A stretch of 64,000 bases of DNA from Burkholderiales bacterium (GCA_036406675.1 DASXAO010000047.1:4513-68512); one strand, 5' to 3'; shown: positions 14,349 to 24,076, counted from the first letter of the stretch. Numbers and translations are program-made. The notes: generated from the letters alone by a model not told the origin.

Positions 14349-17126
14349 CTAGGGTCGCTCAGCGGTCGGCGGCGCGCACCCGCGCGCGGCCCAGGCGGAG
14401 AGCGCCGCGTCGGGCTGGCGCATCCAGCCCATCAGTTGCGGTCCCTGATCGCCCAGCAGGCAGTGATGAAAAGCGGTGACCGCCTGCGCGCGAGGCGTCA
14501 TGGCGTCGAACACCGCCTTGTCGACCACGGCAGGCGGGCGCCGATGCGCGAGCGCGTCGATCGCGAGGTGCTCGGCGGCAACCGGGGCGAAGGCAGGGTC
14601 GGACGCGCCGCGCCGCGCGGCGATGGCGACGGCCTGCGCGCCGCTGCCGAGGAGCCAGCGCGGAAGCTCGACCAGCCCGGTGCGGCGCAGGACGAAGGCG
14701 ATGTCGCTCCAGTAGTTGTAGTCGGCGCCGCGCAGCTCGGGGAAAAGCGTCCGGTCGAGGATCGCGCGGCGGCGAAACGCTTCCGGGCTTTCCGCCAGCA
14801 CCGCGGAAGGAAGGATCGCGGCCCAGGGGCTCGTCTCGAGGCGACGGCGACCCGACTCGGCGTCCATGAGCCACAGCGCGTGCCGCGGCGGCTCGGAATG
14901 GAGCGCAGAGCCGATCCGGCGGGGGTGGTCGTCGACGAGCGGCGCGGTACCCGCGGTCAGCTCGCGCAGCGCGTCGGCGTCGGCCATGAAGAGCGCGGCG
15001 AGCTCCGCCGGGCTGTCGACGCCGAGGCGCCGCAACTCGCTCCCCGTCCGCTCGAGCTTCCAGAGCCGCGAAAACTGCTCGCGGGTCACGGGCGCGATGC
15101 CGCCGCGGCTGCCGACGAGGATCCAGTCGCGGTGAAATCCAGACCAGAGGGAGCAGTCCTCGAACGCTTCGCAGAAGGCGCGGATGATGGCGAGCGCCTC
15201 GTCCTCGAGCACGAGATACGCGGGGAGCCAGTAGGTGGCGATCCCGGCGGGATTGAGGTGGTCCTTGACGAGCTCGAAATACTCGCGCGTGTAGAGCGAA
15301 GCGACCCCCGCCATCTTCGGCGGCGGCGGCTCGCCGGTGATGAGGTCGTAGCGCCCCGACGTGGCCTGCAGGAAGAAGCGGCCGTCCTCGACGCGCGTGC
15401 GCACGCGCGGGTCGCGCAGCGGGTGGCGCGCGGGGTCGGGGTGCACGATGCTGCTCATCTCGAGGATGTCCTTCGACACGTCGACGACCTCGAGCGAGCG
15501 CAGGTCGGGAAGGTCGGTGAGCGCGCTCGCCGTCATGCCGACGCCGAAGCAGATGAGCAGCGCGCGCTCGATCTTCGGATGGAGGGCGGCCGGGAGGTAC
15601 GCGAAAAGCTTCATGTAGCGCTGTATGCCGATGGCCGTGGAGGCCATGGAGTACGAGTTGGTGGCGAGGCGCAGGAACAGCGGCTCGCCGAGAAAGTCGT
15701 GCGCGAGGTAGAACGTGGTCTGCTCGAGGCCCTCGCGCGCCGCCACGATGCGGCCGGCGAAGCGCTGCTCGACGCCGCGCCAGTGCTTTTCGGCCATCGT
15801 GCCGAACGGAAACAGGACGAGCGCAGCCGCGGCGGCGAGCGCGGGACGAAGCGCGCGCCAGGGCGACGCTTCGGCGCGGGGAATGACGAGCACGGCCACG
15901 GCATAGACCAGCGCCAGCGCGAAGAACGAGCGCTCGAGGCCGAGCACCGGCAGCAGGACGAACGCGCCGACGAGCGACCCGAGCATCGCCCCGAGCGTGT
16001 TGGCGAGCGTGAGCGCGCCGGTCGCGACGCCGGCGTCGTCCATGCCGCTTCGCAGCCGCTCGCCCAGCGCGGTGAAGAGGAAACCGGAGAGGAGGGCCGG
16101 CGGCGCGAGGAGGAACGCGCACAGAACCGCGGCGCTCGGCGGCGACTGCGCGTGCACGGGCGCGAGGCGCGCGAGCAGCCAGGGATAAGCGGCGTATGCG
16201 CCGACCACCGCGAGCGCCGCGCCCGCCCCCGCAGCGCGCGCCAAGCCGGAGGAAAGCGGCCGGCGGCGCGCAACGCCGGCCGCGACGAGGCCGCCGAGGC
16301 CGATCCCGGCCAGCACTACCGCGAGCATCACTGCGAAGAGGAGCGGGGTGCCATCGATGAAGAGAAGCAGGAAGCGAAAGCCGACCACTTCCAGCGCGAG
16401 AAGCGCGCCTCCCGCCAAAAAAGCAGCCGCGAGGACGCGCCCTCGTCCCACAAACGCTTCACTGGAAAAAGAAAAACGAAATTCCTGGTTCTTGATGGTT
16501 CCCGAGATGCGCAGGGCGATGAGCGCCGCGGCGAGGTTGCACGCGGCGCCGGCGAAGCCGCTGCCCCGCAGCCCGAGCGACGGAATGAGCACGAGCTCGG
16601 CGCCGAGCGTGCCCGCAACCGCGCCGAGCGTGTTGATGCCGTAGAGGCGGCCGAGCGCGAAGCCGTAGCTGCCGGTGAGCCCTTCCAGCGGCTTCGCGAC
16701 CAGCGGCAGGCTCGCGCCGAGCGCCGTGGCGGGGATCAGCATGAGGACGAAGGCGATGCCAAGGCGCGCGGCGTCGAGGGCGGCGACGTGGTCCACGAGC
16801 GGCGCGAGGAGCGGGCGCAAGAGCGCGGGGAGATGCGGAAAGGCGCCGACGAGCAACGCGCCGGACAGCGCGGCCAGCGTCTCGACCAGCGCGTAGCCGA
16901 GCAGCGGCCGCTTCCAGCGGCGCGCGAGCGCCATGGCCGCCGCATTGCCCAGGCCCAGTCCCGCCATGAACGCCGCGACGACCAGCGCCGCCGACCACAC
17001 GCTGTTGCCGACGACGAGGCCGGCCTGGCTGAACCAGACCGTTTCCAGCACGAGCGCGCCCGCGCCGGAGAGGAAGAACATTCCAAGGACCGCCGGTAGC
17101 GCCGGCGTTGTTATTGTTCTGGCCAC
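14349..17126 (-). CDS. Fused polytopic-membrane / spermidine-synthase-like protein with long C-terminal extension (925 aa)
   Basis: The N-terminal ~470 aa is very hydrophobic (MFS-like helices). The middle has an aminopropyl/methyltransferase fold: LLICFGVGMTASAL..LEVVDVSKDI..DPRVRTRVEDGRFFL..RYDLITGEPPPP..LYTREYFELVKDHLNPAGI. The last ~250 aa are unassigned. Confidence 0.75.
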   Translation of the reverse strand: MARTITTPALPAVLGMFFLSGAGALVLETVWFSQAGLVVGNSVWSAALVVAAFMAGLGLGNAAAMALARRWKRPLLGYALVETLAALSGALLVGAFPHLPALLRPLLAPLVDHVAALDAARLGIAFVLMLIPATALGASLPLVAKPLEGLTGSYGFALGRLYGINTLGAVAGTLGAELVLIPSLGLRGSGFAGAACNLAAALIALRISGTIKNQEFRFSFSSEAFVGRGRVLAAAFLAGGALLALEVVGFRFLLLFIDGTPLLFAVMLAVVLAGIGLGGLVAAGVARRRPLSSGLARAAGAGAALAVVGAYAAYPWLLARLAPVHAQSPPSAAVLCAFLLAPPALLSGFLFTALGERLRSGMDDAGVATGALTLANTLGAMLGSLVGAFVLLPVLGLERSFFALALVYAVAVLVIPRAEASPWRALRPALAAAAALVLFPFGTMAEKHWRGVEQRFAGRIVAAREGLEQTTFYLAHDFLGEPLFLRLATNSYSMASTAIGIQRYMKLFAYLPAALHPKIERALLICFGVGMTASALTDLPDLRSLEVVDVSKDILEMSSIVHPDPARHPLRDPRVRTRVEDGRFFLQATSGRYDLITGEPPPPKMAGVASLYTREYFELVKDHLNPAGIATYWLPAYLVLEDEALAIIRAFCEAFEDCSLWSGFHRDWILVGSRGGIAPVTREQFSRLWKLERTGSELRRLGVDSPAELAALFMADADALRELTAGTAPLVDDHPRRIGSALHSEPPRHALWLMDAESGRRRLETSPWAAILPSAVLAESPEAFRRRAILDRTLFPELRGADYNYWSDIAFVLRRTGLVELPRWLLGSGAQAVAIAARRGASDPAFAPVAAEHLAIDALAHRRPPAVVDKAVFDAMTPRAQAVTAFHHCLLGDQGPQLMGWMRQPDAALSAWAARGCAPPTAERP

Positions 17127-18066: not shown

Positions 18067-18357
18067 GTGACGACGCGAAGCAATCTGGTCGCCTTCCCGG
18101 GCATCGAGCGTGAGCTGGTTCTCGAGCTCGCCGCCGTGCTGGCGCGCTACGGTGCGAGCGCGGCGGCGCAGGAGCGGCTGCGGCGCGCGCGCCGGCCGGA
18201 TCCTTTGCTGATGCGCCAGGCGTACCAGGAGCTGCGGCGCCTGGGCGCGCATCACTGGCTGCTCGCGGTAGTGCGGGCATGGCACGACGGCCTGTCCGAC
18301 TTCGAGGCGCTTCGCACCCTGAAGGAAATGAACGCCGACCGGTTCGATTTCAATTGA
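18067..18357 (+). CDS. Hypothetical protein (96 aa)
   Basis: GTG at 18067 in the frame of ORF 17704..18357. Strongly GC3-biased codons. No motif recognised. Confidence 0.45.
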   Translation: MTTRSNLVAFPGIERELVLELAAVLARYGASAAAQERLRRARRPDPLLMRQAYQELRRLGAHHWLLAVVRAWHDGLSDFEALRTLKEMNADRFDFN

Positions 18358-18565
18358 ACCCGCGCAACCGCAGCACCCGCCCGTCCACGGCATAGATCGC
18401 GCTGCCGTAGTAGTTGCCGACCACGAGAAATTTCGCGTCGCCGGCCTGCGTCTCGTTGCCGGTGGCGTCGAAATAGCGCTCGCTCACGCCGAGGTATCCG
18501 CCCATGTATTCGGCCGCGTCGATCACGTTCTTTGGGATCTCGCCCACCTTTTTTCTCCGCGACAA
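18350..18565 (-). CDS. Hypothetical small protein (71 aa)
   Basis: Complete ORF with GC3-biased codons (MSRRKKVGEIPKNVIDAAEYMGGYLGV..). Convergent with 18067..18357 and overlaps it by 8 nt. Confidence 0.5.
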   Translation of the reverse strand: MSRRKKVGEIPKNVIDAAEYMGGYLGVSERYFDATGNETQAGDAKFLVVGNYYGSAIYAVDGRVLRLRGFN

Positions 18566-18669: not shown

Positions 18670-19008
18670 CTAGGCGGGGCTCGGCGGGCGAACGGGTGCC
18701 GGGCGCGGCGGGCGCAGGTGCAGCGGAATCCAGGACACGGCGACGTCGCCGTGGATGAAGGTCTGGCAGGCCATGCGGTGGCCGGCGGCAAAGTCCGCCT
18801 CGGAGAGGTGGTTGCGCTCCTTGTCCTTGATGGCGTCGGTGTTCTCGAGCCCGCGCTCGATCTTGCACTTGCAGGTGCCGCACAGGCCGGCGCCGCACTT
18901 GAACGGAATTCCGCCCTTTTCGCGGATCGACAGGCGCAGGAGGTTGCCGGGCTCGGCCGCGGTGACGACCTTGCCCTCGTTCGTGATGAAGGTGACCGTG
19001 ACGGGCAT
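18670..19008 (-). CDS. Plant-type [2Fe-2S] ferredoxin-domain protein
   Basis: FKCGAGLCGTCKC ... ACQTF gives Cx4Cx2C...C ligand spacing. Pro-rich C-terminal tail. Confidence 0.85.
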   Translation of the reverse strand: MPVTVTFITNEGKVVTAAEPGNLLRLSIREKGGIPFKCGAGLCGTCKCKIERGLENTDAIKDKERNHLSEADFAAGHRMACQTFIHGDVAVSWIPLHLRPPRPAPVRPPSPA

Positions 19009-19302
19009 TCAGATCCTCTCGAGCGACACGTCCAACGTTCCCAGGCCCGCCAGGCTGCGCAACTCGCGGCGCGCCTTCTCCAGGCTGTCGAAGCGCGGCA
19101 GGAACTTGGACGGCACGAAGTTCACCGCCGCGGGGGAGGCCTCGTCGACGATCTTCACCTTCGGCTCGCCCTCGATCTGTGCGATCACGAATCGGGCGCG
19201 CTTGCGCCCGCAAAAGAGATAGTCGTAGGTTTCCACCGGCTTCAGACCGTCGCCCGCCTCGGTGCGGAACTGGCCCGGCTTGCTCGTCAGGATGACGTAC
19301 AT
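19009..19302 (-). CDS. 97-aa protein of unknown function between the two ferredoxin genes
   Basis: ATG at 19302 (MYVILTSKPGQFRTEAGDG..) inside ORF 19009..19479. Its stop abuts the ferredoxin start at 19008, and it overlaps the upstream ferredoxin gene by 16 nt. Confidence 0.6.
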   Translation of the reverse strand: MYVILTSKPGQFRTEAGDGLKPVETYDYLFCGRKRARFVIAQIEGEPKVKIVDEASPAAVNFVPSKFLPRFDSLEKARRELRSLAGLGTLDVSLERI

Positions 19303-19613
19303 GGCGGCGTCGCCGGCACCAGGTTTTCCTGCGTCAGCGCCAGGTCGTGGCTGATCCAGAGCTGGCAGCAAAGGCGATAGCCGAGCTGCAGCCGCTCGCC
19401 GAGCAGCTTCTGCTCCTTCCAGTTGGGCGGCGGCAGGTGCTCGCCGCCCTTGAGGATGTGGCTCGCGCAGGTGCCGCATTGGCCCATGCCGCAGCGGTAC
19501 TTGAGGTGCGGCCAGGGAAATTGCTTGATGCCGGCGCGCACCACGAGGTTGGTGTTCTCCTTCACCTCGCCCTCGTACACCTCGCCGCCTTTGTGGACGG
19601 TGATCTTCGGCAT
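19287..19613 (-). CDS. Plant-type [2Fe-2S] ferredoxin-domain protein
   Basis: RCGMGQCGTCASHI ... LCCQLW gives Cx4Cx2C...C. First gene of the three-gene minus-strand operon. Confidence 0.8.
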   Translation of the reverse strand: MPKITVHKGGEVYEGEVKENTNLVVRAGIKQFPWPHLKYRCGMGQCGTCASHILKGGEHLPPPNWKEQKLLGERLQLGYRLCCQLWISHDLALTQENLVPATPPCTSS

Positions 19614-19616
19614 GGC

Positions 19617-19626
19617 TTGTATACGA
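19617..19626. promoter_or_regulatory. GntR/FadR-type half-degenerate operator TTGTATACGA
   Basis: Matches the t.GT.n.AC.a core at 9 of 10 palindromic positions. Located 4 bp upstream of the ferredoxin start codon. Confidence 0.4.
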
Positions 19627-19702
19627 CGCCCGGGTTCGACCTGGGCTGCCCTGTACCCCTTCCTGCGAAACCTGGATTGACCTGCCTCAAGAGTCTAGTA
19701 TA

Positions 19703-19712
19703 TTGTATACAA
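19703..19712. promoter_or_regulatory. Perfect 10-bp palindrome TTGTATACAA (GntR/FadR-type operator candidate)
   Basis: Self-complementary, in the AT-rich core of the 151-bp divergent intergenic region. An FCD-type GntR gene lies at 23423..24076 in the same cluster. Confidence 0.5.
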
Positions 19713-19764
19713 CATTGCAATTTTCCTAGGATTGCAGCCCTTCCCAGCCCTTCCAGGAGACCTC

Positions 19765-20535
19765 ATGGCCGAGCTCATGAACCAGGACCACTTCCGCACC
19801 GCCCTCGAAAACGCGATCAAGGGCAGGGCCGCCACCAAGGCGCCGTTCAGCGTCGCCTGGGCGAGCGGGAAGCTCTCCCGAGAGCACCTCGCGCGCTGGG
19901 CGGAGAACCACTACCACTACGTCGGCCCCTTCGCCGACTACCTCGGCTACATCTACGCGCGCATGCCGGACGAGTTCCAGGACGCCAAGGACTTCCTGCT
20001 GCACAACATGTACGAGGAAGAGATCGGCGGGGACCGGCATACCGATCTCCTGATCCGCTTCGCCGAAGCCTGCGGCACCACGCGCGCCCGCGTCACCAAT
20101 CCCGACAACATGTCGGCCACCACGCGCGGCCTGCAAAGCTGGTGCTACGCCACCGCCATGCGCGAGGATCCGATCGTCGCCGTGGCGGGCCTGGTGGTCG
20201 GGCTCGAGTCGCAGGTGCCGTCGATCTACCGCAAGCAGACGCCCACGCTGCGCGAGAAGTACAAGTTCACCGACCAGGAGGTCGAGTTCTTCGACCTGCA
20301 CATCGTGTCCGACGAGATCCACGGTGAGCGCGGCTACCAGATCGTGCTCGAGCACGCGACCACCCCCGAGCTGCAGCGCCGCTGCCTCAAGATCTGCGAG
20401 GTCGGCGCGCAAATGCGGCTCTCGTACACGACGGCCCTCTACTACGACTACGTGGCGAACGATGTTCCGCTCGCCGAGCTCGACATGGCCGAGAGGCAGG
20501 TCCCCGCCGGCGAGCGGGCGCTGCTGCAGGCATGA
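19765..20535 (+). CDS. Heme-oxygenase-like fold protein (TenA/PqqC/CADD family) with apparent diiron ligand set
   Basis: ATG at 19765 is 4 nt after AGGAGA (the ORF-track start at 19732 is a TTG). Motifs: YEEEIGGDRH (E-x6-H), GLESQ (E) and HIVSDEIH (HxxxDxxH). Confidence 0.75.
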   Translation: MAELMNQDHFRTALENAIKGRAATKAPFSVAWASGKLSREHLARWAENHYHYVGPFADYLGYIYARMPDEFQDAKDFLLHNMYEEEIGGDRHTDLLIRFAEACGTTRARVTNPDNMSATTRGLQSWCYATAMREDPIVAVAGLVVGLESQVPSIYRKQTPTLREKYKFTDQEVEFFDLHIVSDEIHGERGYQIVLEHATTPELQRRCLKICEVGAQMRLSYTTALYYDYVANDVPLAELDMAERQVPAGERALLQA

Positions 20536-21980
20536 GCATGCAGTTCATGAACCTGATCGGCGGCGAGCCCGTCGCCGCGTCCACGGGGCGGACCTTCGAC
20601 GACGTCAATCCCGCCGACACGCGCGACATCGTCGGACGCTTCCAGGCGTCGAGCGCCGCCGACGCAGCCGCGGCGGTCAACGCCGCCGCCGGCGCGTTCG
20701 ACGCCTGGCGCAGGCATCCGGTCTCGAAGCGCGCGAAGGTGCTGCAGGGCGCGGCCGACTATCTCGAGGCGAACGTCGGGCGCTTCGCCGAGGAGCTGAC
20801 GCGCGAGGAGGGCAAGTCGATCGCCCTCGCCAAGGACGAGATCCTGCGCTCGGCGCAGACGCTGCGCTTCTACGCGGTGGAGGGCCAGTCGTTCACCGGC
20901 GAGACTTTCCCGAACGACGACCCCGACATGCTGGTCTACACCGCGCGCGAGCCGCTCGGCGTGGTATCGGTCATCACGCCCTGGAACTTCCCGATCTCGA
21001 TTCCGGCGCGCAAGATCGCGCCCGCGCTCATCACCGGCAACACAGTGGTGTTCAAGCCTTCTTCCGATGCGCCGCTCATCGGCTATCGCCTCGCGCAGGC
21101 GCTGCTCGAGGCGGGCCTGCCCAAAGGCGCGCTGAACTTCCTCACCGGCGCCGCGGCGGACGTGGGCGCGGCGATCACGGAACCGGCGGCGGTCCGCGCG
21201 GTGTCCTTCACCGGCTCGACCGCGGCGGGCGAGCACATCCACCGCTCGGTGCCGCTCACCACGCGCACGCAGATGGAGCTCGGCGGCAAGAATCCGCTCA
21301 TCGTGATGGAGGACGCCGACCTCGACAAGGCGGTCGAACTCGCGGTGAAGGGCGGGCTTTCGCTCAGCGGCCAGGCCTGCACCGGGACGAGCCGGCTGCT
21401 GGTTCACGCGCAGGTGCGCCTCCGCTTCACCGAGAAGCTGCTCGCCAAGGTGAAGGCGCTGCGCGTCGGCAGCGGCATGGACCCGGCGGCGGAGATCGGC
21501 CCGCTCGCCTCGCGCAGGCAGCTCGACACGGTGCTGCGCTACGTCGACCTCGGCAAGCGCGAGGCTACGCACCTCCACGGCGGCGAGCGCCTCGCCGGCG
21601 AGGGCTTCGAGCACGGCTACTATGTCTCGCCGGCGGTGTTCACCGACGCCAAGCCCTCCATGCGCATCGCGCGCGAGGAGATCTTCGGGCCGGTGCTCGC
21701 CATCATCGAAGTCACGGGCTACGAGGACGCGCTCGCGGTGGCGAACGACACCGACTACGGGCTCTCGGCCGCGATCGCCACGAGGAACCCGGCGTACATG
21801 CACCGCTTCGCGCGCGACATCCAGTCCGGCACGGTGAAGATCAACCGCACGACCACCGGCAATCTGGTCAACGCGCCTTTCGGCGGGCTCAAGCGCTCGA
21901 GCACCTCGACCTTCCGCGAGTCCGGCCGGGCGGGGCTCGAGTTCTACACGCAGATCAAGACGGTGTACCAGGGGCTATGA
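20532..21980 (+). CDS. NAD(P)+ aldehyde dehydrogenase (2,5-dioxovalerate/semialdehyde dehydrogenase-like)
   Basis: VITPWNFP, FKPS, FTGST, ELGGKNP (catalytic Glu), GQACTGTSR (catalytic Cys), EEIFGPV. ATGA overlap with the upstream gene. Confidence 0.9.
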   Translation: MSMQFMNLIGGEPVAASTGRTFDDVNPADTRDIVGRFQASSAADAAAAVNAAAGAFDAWRRHPVSKRAKVLQGAADYLEANVGRFAEELTREEGKSIALAKDEILRSAQTLRFYAVEGQSFTGETFPNDDPDMLVYTAREPLGVVSVITPWNFPISIPARKIAPALITGNTVVFKPSSDAPLIGYRLAQALLEAGLPKGALNFLTGAAADVGAAITEPAAVRAVSFTGSTAAGEHIHRSVPLTTRTQMELGGKNPLIVMEDADLDKAVELAVKGGLSLSGQACTGTSRLLVHAQVRLRFTEKLLAKVKALRVGSGMDPAAEIGPLASRRQLDTVLRYVDLGKREATHLHGGERLAGEGFEHGYYVSPAVFTDAKPSMRIAREEIFGPVLAIIEVTGYEDALAVANDTDYGLSAAIATRNPAYMHRFARDIQSGTVKINRTTTGNLVNAPFGGLKRSSTSTFRESGRAGLEFYTQIKTVYQGL

Positions 21981-22453
21981 GAACCGCGTTCAAGCTCGAG
22001 CTCGCCGAAGCGCGCGCCATGGCGCAGGCGGCGCTCGCGAAAGCCGAGGCGCTCAAAGTCCCGGAGACGGTCTGCATCGTCGACGACGGCGGGTACCCGA
22101 TCGCGCTCGAGCGCATGGACGGCGCCCGCGTCACCGGCCCGCAGATCGCCTGGAACAAGGCCTTCACCGCGGCGGGGCACAAGCGCTCGACCCATCTTTT
22201 CACCACGCCGCCGAACGGCCCGGCGCTGCCGGGGAACGAGGCCTTCGGCATCCAGTGGAGCTTCGAGGGCCGCTTCGCCGCGTTCGTCGGCGGCTTCCCG
22301 GTGGTCGTGAACGGGGAGGTCGTCGGCGGGGTGGGGCTTTCGGGCGGCAACGGCGAGCAGGACACGAAGTGCGGCCTGGCGGCGCTGCAGGCGCTGAAGG
22401 ACCTGCTCGGTGCGAAGCACGCCGTGCTGGTCGAGGCCGACATCAAGAAATGA
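21977..22453 (+). CDS. GlcG/HbpS-like (DUF336) heme-binding protein
   Basis: ATGA overlap with the ALDH stop. IVDDGGYPIALERMDGA... and VGGVGLSGGNGEQD are the characteristic blocks. Confidence 0.8.
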   Translation: MRTAFKLELAEARAMAQAALAKAEALKVPETVCIVDDGGYPIALERMDGARVTGPQIAWNKAFTAAGHKRSTHLFTTPPNGPALPGNEAFGIQWSFEGRFAAFVGGFPVVVNGEVVGGVGLSGGNGEQDTKCGLAALQALKDLLGAKHAVLVEADIKK

Positions 22454-22481
22454 AGCCGATTTCCATCCGAGGAGAGGTCGC

Positions 22482-23426
22482 ATGATTCACCGCATGCTTC
22501 TTTTGGTTGCCTTGCTGTCCGCGTTCGCGGCGCAGGCGCAGTACCCGGCGAAGCCGGTGCGCGTCGTCGTGAGCACCGTTCCCGGGCCGCTCGATACCTT
22601 CGCGCGCATGGTGCTCGACAAGATGTCGGCGGCGCTCAAGCAGCCGTTCGTGGTGGAGAACAAGCCCGGCGCCGGAGGCAACATCGCCGCCGACATGGTG
22701 GCCAAGTCCCCCGCCGACGGCTATACGCTCCTCTTCGCCATCGACACGACGTTCACGGTCAATCCTTCCATATACAAGACGCTGCCGTTCGACCCGGCCA
22801 AGGACTTCGCCGCCATCTCGGTCCCCGTCACGTACGGCCAGCTGCTCGCCGTGCATCCATCGGTTCCGGCGAATTCGGTCAAGGAGCTGGTGGCGCTCGC
22901 GAAGCAGAAGAAGCTCACCTATGCCTCCGGCGGCAACGGGACGCCGAGCCATCTCTCCGGGGCGTACTTCCTCGCCGCCGCCGGCATCGACATGACGCAC
23001 GTGCCGTACAAGGGCACCGGCCAATCGGTGATCGACGTCGTCGCCGGTCAGGTGGACTCGATCTTCGCGGTGACCACCGGCGTGCTGCCGCACGTGAAGG
23101 CCGGCAAGCTGCGCGCGCTCGGCATCTCGAGCGCCAAGCGCTCGGCGCTCGCGCCGGAGGTGCCCACCATCGCCGAGACCTATCCGGGATTCGAAGCCGC
23201 GTTCGCCTATGCGCTCATGGCGCCGGCCCGCACGTCCGTCGACATCGTGCAAACGCTCAATCGCGAGGTGCTGAACGCGCTGGCGCAGCCCGACGTGCAG
23301 GAGAAGAACCGCACGTTCGACTACGTCGCGACGGGTCTCAATCCGAGCCAGTCGGCAGCGTGGCTGAAGGACAACCGGGAGCGCTGGGCGCAGGTCATCA
23401 AGCGCGCCGGGATCCTTGCGGAATGA
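22482..23426 (+). CDS. Bug/TctC-family tripartite tricarboxylate transporter substrate-binding protein
   Basis: ATG at 22482. Signal peptide MIHRMLLLVALLSAFAAQAQ, then YPAKPVRVVV, ENKPGAGGNIAA, PYKGTGQ and a WAQVIKRAGI tail. Confidence 0.88.
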   Translation: MIHRMLLLVALLSAFAAQAQYPAKPVRVVVSTVPGPLDTFARMVLDKMSAALKQPFVVENKPGAGGNIAADMVAKSPADGYTLLFAIDTTFTVNPSIYKTLPFDPAKDFAAISVPVTYGQLLAVHPSVPANSVKELVALAKQKKLTYASGGNGTPSHLSGAYFLAAAGIDMTHVPYKGTGQSVIDVVAGQVDSIFAVTTGVLPHVKAGKLRALGISSAKRSALAPEVPTIAETYPGFEAAFAYALMAPARTSVDIVQTLNREVLNALAQPDVQEKNRTFDYVATGLNPSQSAAWLKDNRERWAQVIKRAGILAE

Positions 23427-24076
23427 CGCTCAAGCATCATCCCTCGCTCGGGCAGCGCGTCGCCGACGAGCTGCGCCGCTCGATCCTCACCAACCGGAGA
23501 AAGCCCGGCGACCGGCTGATCGAGGACCGGCTCTCCGAGGAGCTCGGCGTCTCGCGCATCCCGATCCGGGAGGCCCTGCGCTCGCTCGCCGCCGAAGGCC
23601 TGGTGGACGTGCAGCCGCGGCGCGGCGCATCGGTCGCCGAGGTCTCCCCGGAAGTCGCGCGCGACCTCGTCGAGGTGCGCGCCACGCTCGAGGGCCTGAA
23701 CGCCCGCCTCGCGGCGCGCCATCACGACCCGGCGATCGTCGAGGAGCTGCGCCAGGTGCTCGAGCAGGGCAACCGCGCCGCAAGATCGAAGAACGTCGAC
23801 GACCTGGTGCGCCTGAACGGGGAGTTCCACGACAAGCTCGGCCAGGCGGGGCGCAACAGCATCCTCGGCGACATCATGCGCACCCTGCGCGAGCGCACCA
23901 GCCTGGTTTTCGCCGCCAACAGCGCGCGCCGCGCCCAGCAGGACTGGGACGAGCACTCGAAGATCCTCGCCGCGGTCATCGACGGCGACGAGGAGCTCGC
24001 CTCGATGCTCGCCATGCGCCACGTGCGCCGCGCTGCCGACGCCGCCTTTTCCATGGCGGCCAAGAAAAGCCCTTAG
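23423..24076 (+). CDS. GntR-family (FadR/FCD subfamily) transcriptional regulator
   Basis: ATGA overlap with the tctC-like stop. Winged HTH LSEELGVSRIPIREALRSLAAEGLV, followed by an all-helical FCD-type C-terminal domain. Confidence 0.88.
   Translation: MTLKHHPSLGQRVADELRRSILTNRRKPGDRLIEDRLSEELGVSRIPIREALRSLAAEGLVDVQPRRGASVAEVSPEVARDLVEVRATLEGLNARLAARHHDPAIVEELRQVLEQGNRAARSKNVDDLVRLNGEFHDKLGQAGRNSILGDIMRTLRERTSLVFAANSARRAQQDWDEHSKILAAVIDGDEELASMLAMRHVRRAADAAFSMAAKKSP

Follow-up and report, generated by a model that had tools for sequence, protein, structure and literature searches.

Positions 18670-24076 of a 64,000-nucleotide (nt) stretch of DNA from a Burkholderiales bacterium (GCA_036406675.1 DASXAO010000047.1:4513-68512; hereafter the window) hold two divergent compact operons, one of which begins with the gene of a heme-oxygenase-like dimetal oxidase (HDO). 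The minus-strand operon consists of fdxA, an open reading frame (ORF) of 97 amino acids (aa) that we call unk97, and fdxB. The plus-strand operon consists of five genes, encoding the HDO, an aldehyde dehydrogenase (ALDH), a DUF336/GlcG protein, a TctC receptor and a GntR regulator with an FCD domain. The conserved metal ligands, the partners kept beside the HDO gene and a conserved operator suggest that this region is a GntR/FCD-repressed, horizontally mobile cluster encoding a multicomponent, O2-activating dimetal oxygenase on the HDO scaffold, a reading to which we assign a probability of roughly 0.6. HDOs are a young and chemically diverse class, known almost only from natural-product pathways and usually driven in vitro by artificial reductants.

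A Predicted HDO of the CADD Branch

Judged by profile, modeled fold and aligned ligands, the 256-aa protein is an HDO of the CADD branch. It matched PF14518 with 127.7 bits (cut-off 28.9), covering 174 of 177 profile positions. Its best sequence match in the PDB was CADD/CT610 (1rcw, 5.6e-16), followed by a second ‘4-aminobenzoate synthase’ (9pj4), with PqqC more distant. In sequence alignment, residues E85, H92, E148, H179, D183 and H186 fall on the six metal-ligand positions of CADD, in the motifs E85-x6-H92, E148 within LESQ, and H179-x3-D183-x2-H186. We take the CADD ligands to be E81, H88, E142, H174, D178 and H181, a numbering that agrees with this alignment. All six residues are invariant across 25 family members and in a sister family of about 50% identity, so the ligand motifs that an earlier note on this DNA had quoted are real. 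Two-metal binding and O2 activation by the protein are predicted from its sequence.

The AlphaFold (AF2) model is all-helical (pLDDT 87.5), with one internal confidence dip at residues 81-90, in the core helix that bears E85 and H92. Its top Foldseek match was Fe/Mn-CADD (8va9; TM 0.86, root-mean-square deviation 2.4 Å), in keeping with the superposition of ligands by sequence. After CADD came PqqC, a TenA homologue, UndA, HrmI, FlcD and BesC; the model was matched to CADD, UndA, HrmI, FlcD and BesC with a Foldseek probability of 1.00 and TM of 0.66-0.86.

A further motif, WAENHYHY (residues 45-52), lies on the helix preceding the first ligand helix. E47, N48, H49 and Y52 are invariant, and Y50 and H51 are conserved in at least 90% of members; the CADD counterpart is YAKDYYLH. 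This motif may provide an extra ligand (E47/H49 as a seventh, as in N-oxygenating HDOs), or a contact to the substrate or a ferredoxin. Among distant representatives, no informative domain fusion of the HDO with a partner was found.

A Co-conserved Partner Set

Co-conservation was counted over 67 orthologous loci from alpha-, beta- and gammaproteobacteria, each with at least 5 kb on either side:

fdxB: 67/67 loci
fdxA: 66/67 loci
97-aa protein (unk97): 66/67 loci
DUF336: 66/67 loci
GntR: 64/67 loci
ALDH: 53/67 loci
orphan membrane protein of about 510 aa: 44/67 loci
Fer2-FAD-NAD reductase: 34/67 loci
OCD/mu-crystallin-family dehydrogenase: 27/67 loci
TauE/SafE protein: 20/67 loci
TctC orthologue: 9/67 loci

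The gene order fdxA-unk97-fdxB was collinear in 66 of 66 loci; relative to the HDO gene, the trio varied in place and direction. The trio is divergent from the HDO gene in Burkholderiales metagenome-assembled genomes (MAGs), follows it directly and in the same direction, about 10 nt on, in Bradyrhizobium, Skermanella and Roseococcus, and stands 3-5 kb from it in Cupriavidus. That the same gene set is kept despite a rearranged order points to a functional link, more than to chance. The earlier note had proposed the ferredoxin operon as the electron-delivery system of the HDO, and 66-67 of the 67 loci indeed keep this operon beside the HDO gene. Its wider partner set stands in part. The ferredoxins, unk97 and the GntR regulator are near-universal, but TctC is local, the ALDH is dispensable, the GlcG protein is core rather than extra, and the usual reductase had been missed.

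The sister HDO family, 48-50% identical and abundant in Rokubacteria and other soil metagenomes, shows a smaller version of this set. Its HDO gene is followed directly by the gene of a 102-aa Rieske ferredoxin and then by that of a 141-aa HbpS-like protein, in four unrelated contexts (L088-L093; e.g., L092 5001-6446) that have no conserved ALDH, GntR or transporter. The link to a [2Fe-2S] carrier thus survives a swap to the non-homologous Rieske type, which supports an electron-donor role for the ferredoxins. Likewise, a DUF336 protein retained beside the sister HDO belongs to the evolutionary core. From these gene neighborhoods we conclude that DUF336/GlcG is a core partner of the HDO and not a downstream extra. 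The protein of the window matched PF03928 with 117.3 bits (cut-off 25) over 127 of 128 positions, and among its PDB relatives (2a2l, 5cx7, 9jth, 6bws) are NahX, EfgA, which senses formaldehyde, and the C-terminal domain of PduO.

Both ferredoxins have recognizable ligands and relatives. FdxB carries the cysteines C38-x4-C43-x2-C46...C80 and a Pro-rich tail, and is weakly similar to the Fer2 domains of YfaE, BenC and MmoC. FdxA carries the motif CGMGQCGTC...CC, and its PDB relatives are plant-type ferredoxins and the Fer2 domain of BenC. The protein encoded between them, unk97, has 874 homologues and no match in Pfam or NCBIfam even at E<=10, nor any sequence match in the PDB. Its family has a single invariant Cys, so it cannot be a classical Fe-S ferredoxin. 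The AF2 model of unk97 is confident (pLDDT 91.8) and mostly beta with one helix, and Foldseek found no match to it in the PDB (best E 0.23, TM < 0.36). We therefore rejected both an MmoB/DmpM-like effector, for which the PDB offered no structural match, and a degenerate ferredoxin, given the lone invariant Cys and the same lack of a PDB match. From gene order, our guess is that unk97 acts as an adaptor or effector between ferredoxin and HDO, or as an assembly factor. NCBI labels some of its homologues ‘ferredoxin’ (L083 11157-11480; P0121, P0122 and others) despite their having no Fer2 match, and the label is probably a carry-over from neighboring genes.

The Fer2-FAD-NAD reductase of related loci is BenC/AntC/MmoC-like, and about half of the loci have none linked to the cluster. 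In the closest relatives (L001-L003) its gene lies between the DUF336 and TctC genes, and in L001 its start overlaps the DUF336 stop codon. A blastn comparison of the window with L001 was collinear at 94.5% up to 22453 and again from 22551; a 1040-nt segment of L001 (12690-13731) that encodes the reductase is missing, and 97 nt differ at the junction. No reductase homologue was found in the whole 64-kb window by tblastn or by a CxxC-motif search. On this comparison the window has lost its reductase, and a housekeeping ferredoxin reductase presumably stands in for it. The N-terminus of TctC also differs at this junction.

Distribution and Probable Mobility

The orthologue group is unusually uniform. 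At 50% clustering a single full-length representative (83% identical) covers all of it, and the closest full-length relative beyond that is only 48% identical. Between proteobacterial classes, identity within the group is 80-98%. An orthologue is carried by at least 579 species genomes of the collection, including Bradyrhizobium, Cupriavidus, Paraburkholderia, Bordetella, and many Burkholderiales and alphaproteobacterial MAGs. At the DNA level, the window and a soil Burkholderiales MAG are 94.5% identical. Plasmid-borne copies occur as well, in Caballeronia (next to ISNCY transposases) and in Skermanella; the annotated plasmid records give generic product names only. On the Caballeronia plasmid pSBC2-4 (L082, 16948-20021), two ISNCY-family transposase genes follow the cluster copy, consistent with horizontal mobility of the module. 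Cupriavidus basilensis KF708 (L050) has two HDO genes, at about 5900 (minus strand) and 10001 (plus strand), both 87% identical to the query, together with two orphan permease genes, all within 10 kb.

Cluster Layout and Predicted Regulation

All eight genes lie where the earlier note had placed them:

18670..19008, minus strand: fdxB, 112 aa, plant-type [2Fe-2S] ferredoxin (Pfam Fer2, 3.4e-11)
19009..19302, minus strand: unk97, 97 aa, no Pfam, NCBIfam or PDB sequence match
19287..19613, minus strand: fdxA, 108 aa, plant-type [2Fe-2S] ferredoxin (Pfam Fer2, 4.9e-07)
19617..19626, no strand: second site resembling the operator, TTGTATACGA, 4 nt before the fdxA start codon, read from the sequence
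19677..19704, plus strand: sigma-70-like promoter of the HDO operon (TTGACC, 16 nt, TATATT), from a consensus scan
19703..19712, no strand: perfect palindrome TTGTATACAA, predicted GntR/FCD operator, overlapping the -10 element
19765..20535, plus strand: CADD-like HDO, 256 aa (PF14518, 5.5e-37)
20532..21980, plus strand: NAD(P)-dependent aldehyde dehydrogenase (Pfam Aldedh, 1e-160)
21977..22453, plus strand: DUF336/GlcG/HbpS-like protein, 158 aa (PF03928, 5.7e-34)
22454..22550, plus strand: junction without the reductase segment (blastn against the closest relative, L001)
22482..23426, plus strand: TctC/Bug periplasmic carboxylate-binding receptor (PF03401, 6e-66)
23423..24076, plus strand: GntR-family regulator with FCD effector domain (Pfam GntR and FCD)

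The coordinates also confirm the 151-bp divergent intergenic region between fdxA and the HDO gene (19614-19764) and ATGA overlaps at three junctions (HDO/ALDH, ALDH/GlcG and TctC/GntR). On the other strand, unk97 and fdxA overlap by 16 nt and the unk97 stop abuts the fdxB start. The sole correction to the gene calls is a small one, the TctC start being likelier at 22482 (MIHRM...) than at 22485.

The GntR regulator combines an N-terminal winged helix-turn-helix (PF00392, 65.6 bits) with a C-terminal FCD domain (PF07729, 88.7 bits). Its best NCBIfam match was phnR_burk, at 116 bits (cut-off 271), and the next family scored 65 bits. Upstream of the HDO gene, the promoter-like TTGACC-16-TATATT matches the consensus at 10 of 12 positions (two sites were found against 0.4 expected), as a pattern match only. 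The palindrome TTGTATACAA holds the sole TGTATACA of the 64-kb window. FadR-like GntR operators follow a t.GT...AC.a pattern, which TTGTATACAA fits. Of 78 loci, 76 have a GTATAC core in the 300 nt that precede the HDO gene, whereas the background in these same loci is 0.034 per 300 nt; many related loci have another GTATAC site upstream. The conserved core and the co-conserved regulator make repression by the GntR/FCD protein the likeliest form of control. On these patterns, the GntR/FCD protein is most likely a repressor of both divergent operons, with TTGTATACAA as its predicted operator. The GntR control proposed in the earlier note thus gains a conserved operator, to which binding is predicted.

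The flanking genes, for a spermidine-synthase-like membrane protein, a CDF transporter and PpiD, are unrelated to the cluster, so its boundaries are those drawn earlier. Just upstream and outside the cluster is a 925-aa ORF (14349-17126, minus strand) with many predicted membrane spans and a spermine/spermidine-synthase domain (PF01564, 7e-10). Adjoining fdxB is a 71-aa ORF (18350-18565, minus strand) without a family match; it is kept, at 90% identity, only in the closest relative (L001) and is probably unrelated to the cluster for that reason. An Rfam scan of the window found no riboswitch and no other RNA family.

Proposed Mechanism and Substrate Clues

The analysis shows what the parts are, which ligand residues the HDO carries, that its partners are co-conserved and that a predicted operator is conserved with them. 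From these we infer a direction of electron flow, roles for unk97 and the DUF336 protein, an aldehyde product and a class of substrate. Electrons would pass from NAD(P)H to a BenC/MmoC-type Fer2-FAD reductase (cluster-encoded in about half of the relatives, with a housekeeping substitute here) and on to FdxA and FdxB, the two plant-type [2Fe-2S] ferredoxins, with unk97, encoded between them, probably serving as adaptor or effector. The ferredoxins would reduce the Fe2 (or Mn/Fe) site of the HDO, leading to O2 activation, with the DUF336/GlcG protein as an obligatory partner. The likeliest chemistry would be oxidation of a small anionic substrate at a heteroatom-bearing carbon, or an oxidative C-C fragmentation, the substrate being taken up through TctC here and the orphan permease elsewhere. 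A reactive aldehyde would be released, which the DUF336 protein may bind or handle and which the ALDH (closest to 2,5-dioxovalerate dehydrogenases) would turn into an acid. The regulator would sit on TTGTATACAA over the -10 element and presumably be released by the substrate.

We consider an aldehyde product probable, given the ALDH in 53 of 67 loci and the ties of DUF336 proteins to aldehyde-producing pathways: the DUF336 protein EfgA binds formaldehyde, and GlcG and PduO occur in aldehyde-producing pathways (PMC8153426). That a carboxylate enters and an aldehyde leaves, as the earlier note had it, is still something we infer.

Genomic clues to the substrate were sought in five places. The nearest NCBIfam models of the ALDH are 2,5-dioxovalerate and alpha-ketoglutarate semialdehyde (KGSA) dehydrogenase (535 and 530 bits, below the cut-offs of 750 and 770), and its best PDB matches are betaine-aldehyde dehydrogenases. 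From its presence across loci, the ALDH appears frequent yet dispensable. For TctC, the closest structures (Bug27, TphC and BugE) had similar scores and did not reveal a specificity; by its distribution, TctC is a local, lineage-specific uptake component. Elsewhere, the membrane protein of about 510 aa seemingly replaces it (L065 6221-7759, minus strand; L008 8168-9745, minus strand; L083 8287-9873; L086 8449-9954). This protein had no Pfam, NCBIfam or PDB sequence match, and may represent an orphan transporter family. Accessory genes inserted in the operon differ by lineage and encode an amidase (PRK06170), a gamma-glutamyltranspeptidase (GGT), an M20 amidohydrolase, an esterase and a creatininase-family hydrolase; others encode an OCD-family or aspartate-dehydrogenase-like (AspDH-like) enzyme, TauE, and an xsc-like/pta group. 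The inserted hydrolases suggest that amide or ester conjugates are first hydrolyzed to the true substrate, and the OCD-family/aspartate-dehydrogenase-like enzyme suggests an imino- or amino-acid step.

Several points weigh against the proposed oxygenase. The five routes (ALDH, TctC, GntR, the 510-aa permease and the accessory genes) yield no assignment of substrate or product, and the accessory genes point several ways. Since 14 of 67 loci and the sister family have no ALDH, the core does not require an aldehyde product. The window is without a reductase, unk97 is without a structural relative, and the proposed scheme gives no reason for needing two ferredoxins. Finally, the ligand geometry of the HDO was judged by sequence alignment alone, and the metal may be either Fe2 or Mn/Fe, as in CADD.

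A broader claim is also worth stating, which we hold tentatively and rate as possible rather than likely. The HDO, a [2Fe-2S] ferredoxin and DUF336 may together form an unrecognized class of multicomponent oxygenase, to which Proteobacteria add a second ferredoxin, the new-fold unk97 and a BenC-type reductase. DUF336 would then be an obligatory catalytic or effector part, and the reaction an unassigned oxidative cleavage (e.g., C-S, C-N or C-C, with an aldehyde released) of a common soil metabolite in Bradyrhizobium, Cupriavidus, Paraburkholderia and Bordetella.

Alternative Explanations

The triad of HDO, ferredoxin and DUF336 could instead be non-catabolic, acting on a protein-bound, tetrapyrrole, corrinoid or cofactor-like substrate presented by DUF336, or producing a signal or cofactor of small size; in Proteobacteria, the genes for ALDH, GntR and transporter would then be associated with it only secondarily. 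The sister family, found in four unrelated contexts without these three, fits such a role, as does the unusually high conservation (>80% across classes), which suits many protein partners. CADD itself works on a protein-derived substrate. The DUF336 proteins HbpS and PduO, moreover, bind heme and cobalamin (PMC8153426). Nevertheless, we think this reading unlikely: an FCD regulator of the substrate type and a conserved operator are near-universal in the orthologue clade, uptake proteins are often encoded, the operons contain inserted genes of peripheral hydrolases, and the plasmid copies beside insertion sequence elements resemble catabolic modules.

A substrate-specific form of the proposed oxygenase would make it an organosulfonate (or similar oxyanion-releasing) enzyme, which hydroxylates the carbon next to the sulfonate of a sulfonated carboxylate or amino acid, such as a cysteate-, sulfolactate- or taurine-related compound, to give an aldehyde and sulfite. 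A TauE/SafE (TSUP) gene does occur in the cluster in 20 of 67 loci from three lineages, usually beside the OCD-family dehydrogenase. In seven Cupriavidus loci, a group of tauE, pta and a thiamine-pyrophosphate-enzyme gene (an xsc-like sulfoacetaldehyde module by context only) lies just downstream (L065 17967-20726, minus strand, and six others). This group is convergent and follows the amidase and MFS genes of the HDO cluster. Roseococcus has a NitT/TauT-type ABC system after its DUF336 gene, and Billgrantia has chromate-transporter-family pairs on both sides together with an aspartate-dehydrogenase-like gene; a TTT receptor for sulfolactate is also known. We nonetheless find a sulfonate substrate improbable, as TauE is absent from most loci including the window and TSUP is a broad family, the Cupriavidus adjacency is confined to one genus with convergent genes, and the nearest model of the regulator is phosphonate-associated rather than sulfonate-associated.

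We give equally little credence to ferredoxins whose sole task is upkeep or repair of the metal cofactor, the part that YfaE plays for ribonucleotide reductase, and which do not deliver electrons at every turnover. The weak similarity of FdxB to YfaE and the half of loci, including the window, without a dedicated reductase would suit a repair role. Against it, two ferredoxins and a BenC-type reductase share the operon in 34 of 67 loci, and the ferredoxin link outlives replacement by the Rieske type. In addition, characterized HDOs need reducing equivalents for sustained turnover (PMC13185094). This holds for UndA and BesC as well.

That the HDO is a CADD orthologue, and thus a self-sacrificial p-aminobenzoate (pABA) synthase for folate, is very improbable. 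CADD and the ‘4-aminobenzoate synthase’ 9pj4 are indeed its closest solved relatives, and the CADD family model TIGR04305 is its best NCBIfam match. However, that match scored 96 bits, below the cut-off of 200, and the sacrificial residues of CADD, which we take to be Tyr27 and Lys152 (CADD numbering), align with an invariant Ser29 and an invariant Gln158 of the HDO family, whereas 9pj4 retains Tyr and Lys at these positions. The genomic context, moreover, is one of regulator, transporter and ALDH, not of folate genes. We rejected this assignment.

Least credible of all is that the public names are correct (‘pyrroloquinoline-quinone synthase’ at JGI for many members, ‘TenA family transcriptional regulator’ at NCBI for some) and that the protein is PqqC or a TenA-type thiaminase or ‘regulator’: a shared fold and a PF03070 match (4e-10) speak for it, but TIGR02111 scored 54 bits (cut-off 240), none of the neighboring genes is a pqq gene, and PqqC, as the earlier note had held, lacks the six-ligand set (G, G, R, A and D at five of the six positions), which is invariant here, so PqqC and TenA were rejected together.

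Comparison with Known Systems

The closest characterized sequence relative is CADD (CT610 of Chlamydia trachomatis; the Fe/Mn pABA synthase of 1rcw and 8va9), with which the HDO has a common fold and six aligned ligands. The two are only 25-26% identical, the sacrificial Tyr/Lys are Ser/Gln here, and CADD has no ferredoxin, reductase, DUF336, ALDH or regulator partners. A 2021 survey of about 9,600 HDOs listed CADD as a separate group, its function being then unknown (PMC7848743). UndA, BesC, HrmI, FlcD and SznF have the same heme-oxygenase-like fold and 3-His/3-carboxylate core site (PMC7848743). In contrast to the enzyme proposed here, they are biosynthetic enzymes with fatty or amino acids as substrates, generic reductants are used in their assays, and dedicated ferredoxins are lacking; their identity to the HDO is 14-17%.

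MboA/MboB of mangotoxin biosynthesis is an HDO system that needs a dedicated NAD(P)H-flavin-Fe2S2 reductase (JACS 2026, PMC13185094), and was in 2026 the first reported dedicated HDO redox partner (PMC13185094). Compared by description, it resembles the cluster in its co-encoded Fe2S2 redox partner, and its reductase is of the same class (PDR/BenC/T4moF-like) as in relatives of the cluster. It differs in being a two-component biosynthetic pair acting on a tripeptide. Beyond MboAB, the cluster has two free ferredoxins, the 97-aa protein, DUF336 and a context of regulator, transporter and ALDH, and is found in hundreds of genomes.

The component list, counting the reductase that 34 of 67 loci encode and the window is without, also resembles those of soluble methane monooxygenase (sMMO), the toluene/phenol hydroxylases and PaaABCDE. 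These systems combine an NADH reductase (Fer2-FAD-NAD, MmoC/BenC-like) and a carboxylate-bridged diiron oxygenase with two small proteins, a [2Fe-2S] ferredoxin and one that has no cofactor. Their oxygenase, however, is a ferritin-like four-helix bundle and not heme-oxygenase-like, and unk97 is unlike MmoB/DmpM. These differences in oxygenase fold and small protein place the cluster outside the bacterial multicomponent monooxygenase family, to which its likeness is one of analogy and not of membership. For the partner protein, EfgA, GlcG, the PduO C-terminal domain and NahX belong to the same DUF336 family at low identity (57-78 bits), and we know of no DUF336 protein that is a fixed oxygenase partner.

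A full-text search of the literature library at hand found no paper on the cluster and no assigned pathway for it or its orthologues. With the ligands superposed by sequence and the ferredoxin operon conserved, none of the three outcomes that the earlier note had named as refuting was obtained. We regard the cluster as a distinct HDO clade with a partner set not described before, and as a new multicomponent variant of the HDO class.

Significance

As proposed, the cluster would represent a natural, genetically defined electron-transfer chain to an HDO, and it places an HDO in the seemingly catabolic metabolism of very common soil and plant-associated bacteria. Through it, two orphan families, DUF336/GlcG and unk97, gain partners and a setting for assays; the 510-aa permease of relatives is a third orphan. 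The GntR/FCD regulator and its predicted operator TTGTATACAA could be used as a biosensor toward the substrate. Correct assignment would also fix the misannotation of this protein as PqqC or a TenA ‘regulator’ in hundreds of genomes. If the triad does prove to be a class of oxygenase with DUF336 as an obligatory catalytic or effector part, this would be the first enzymological role for the large DUF336/GlcG family.

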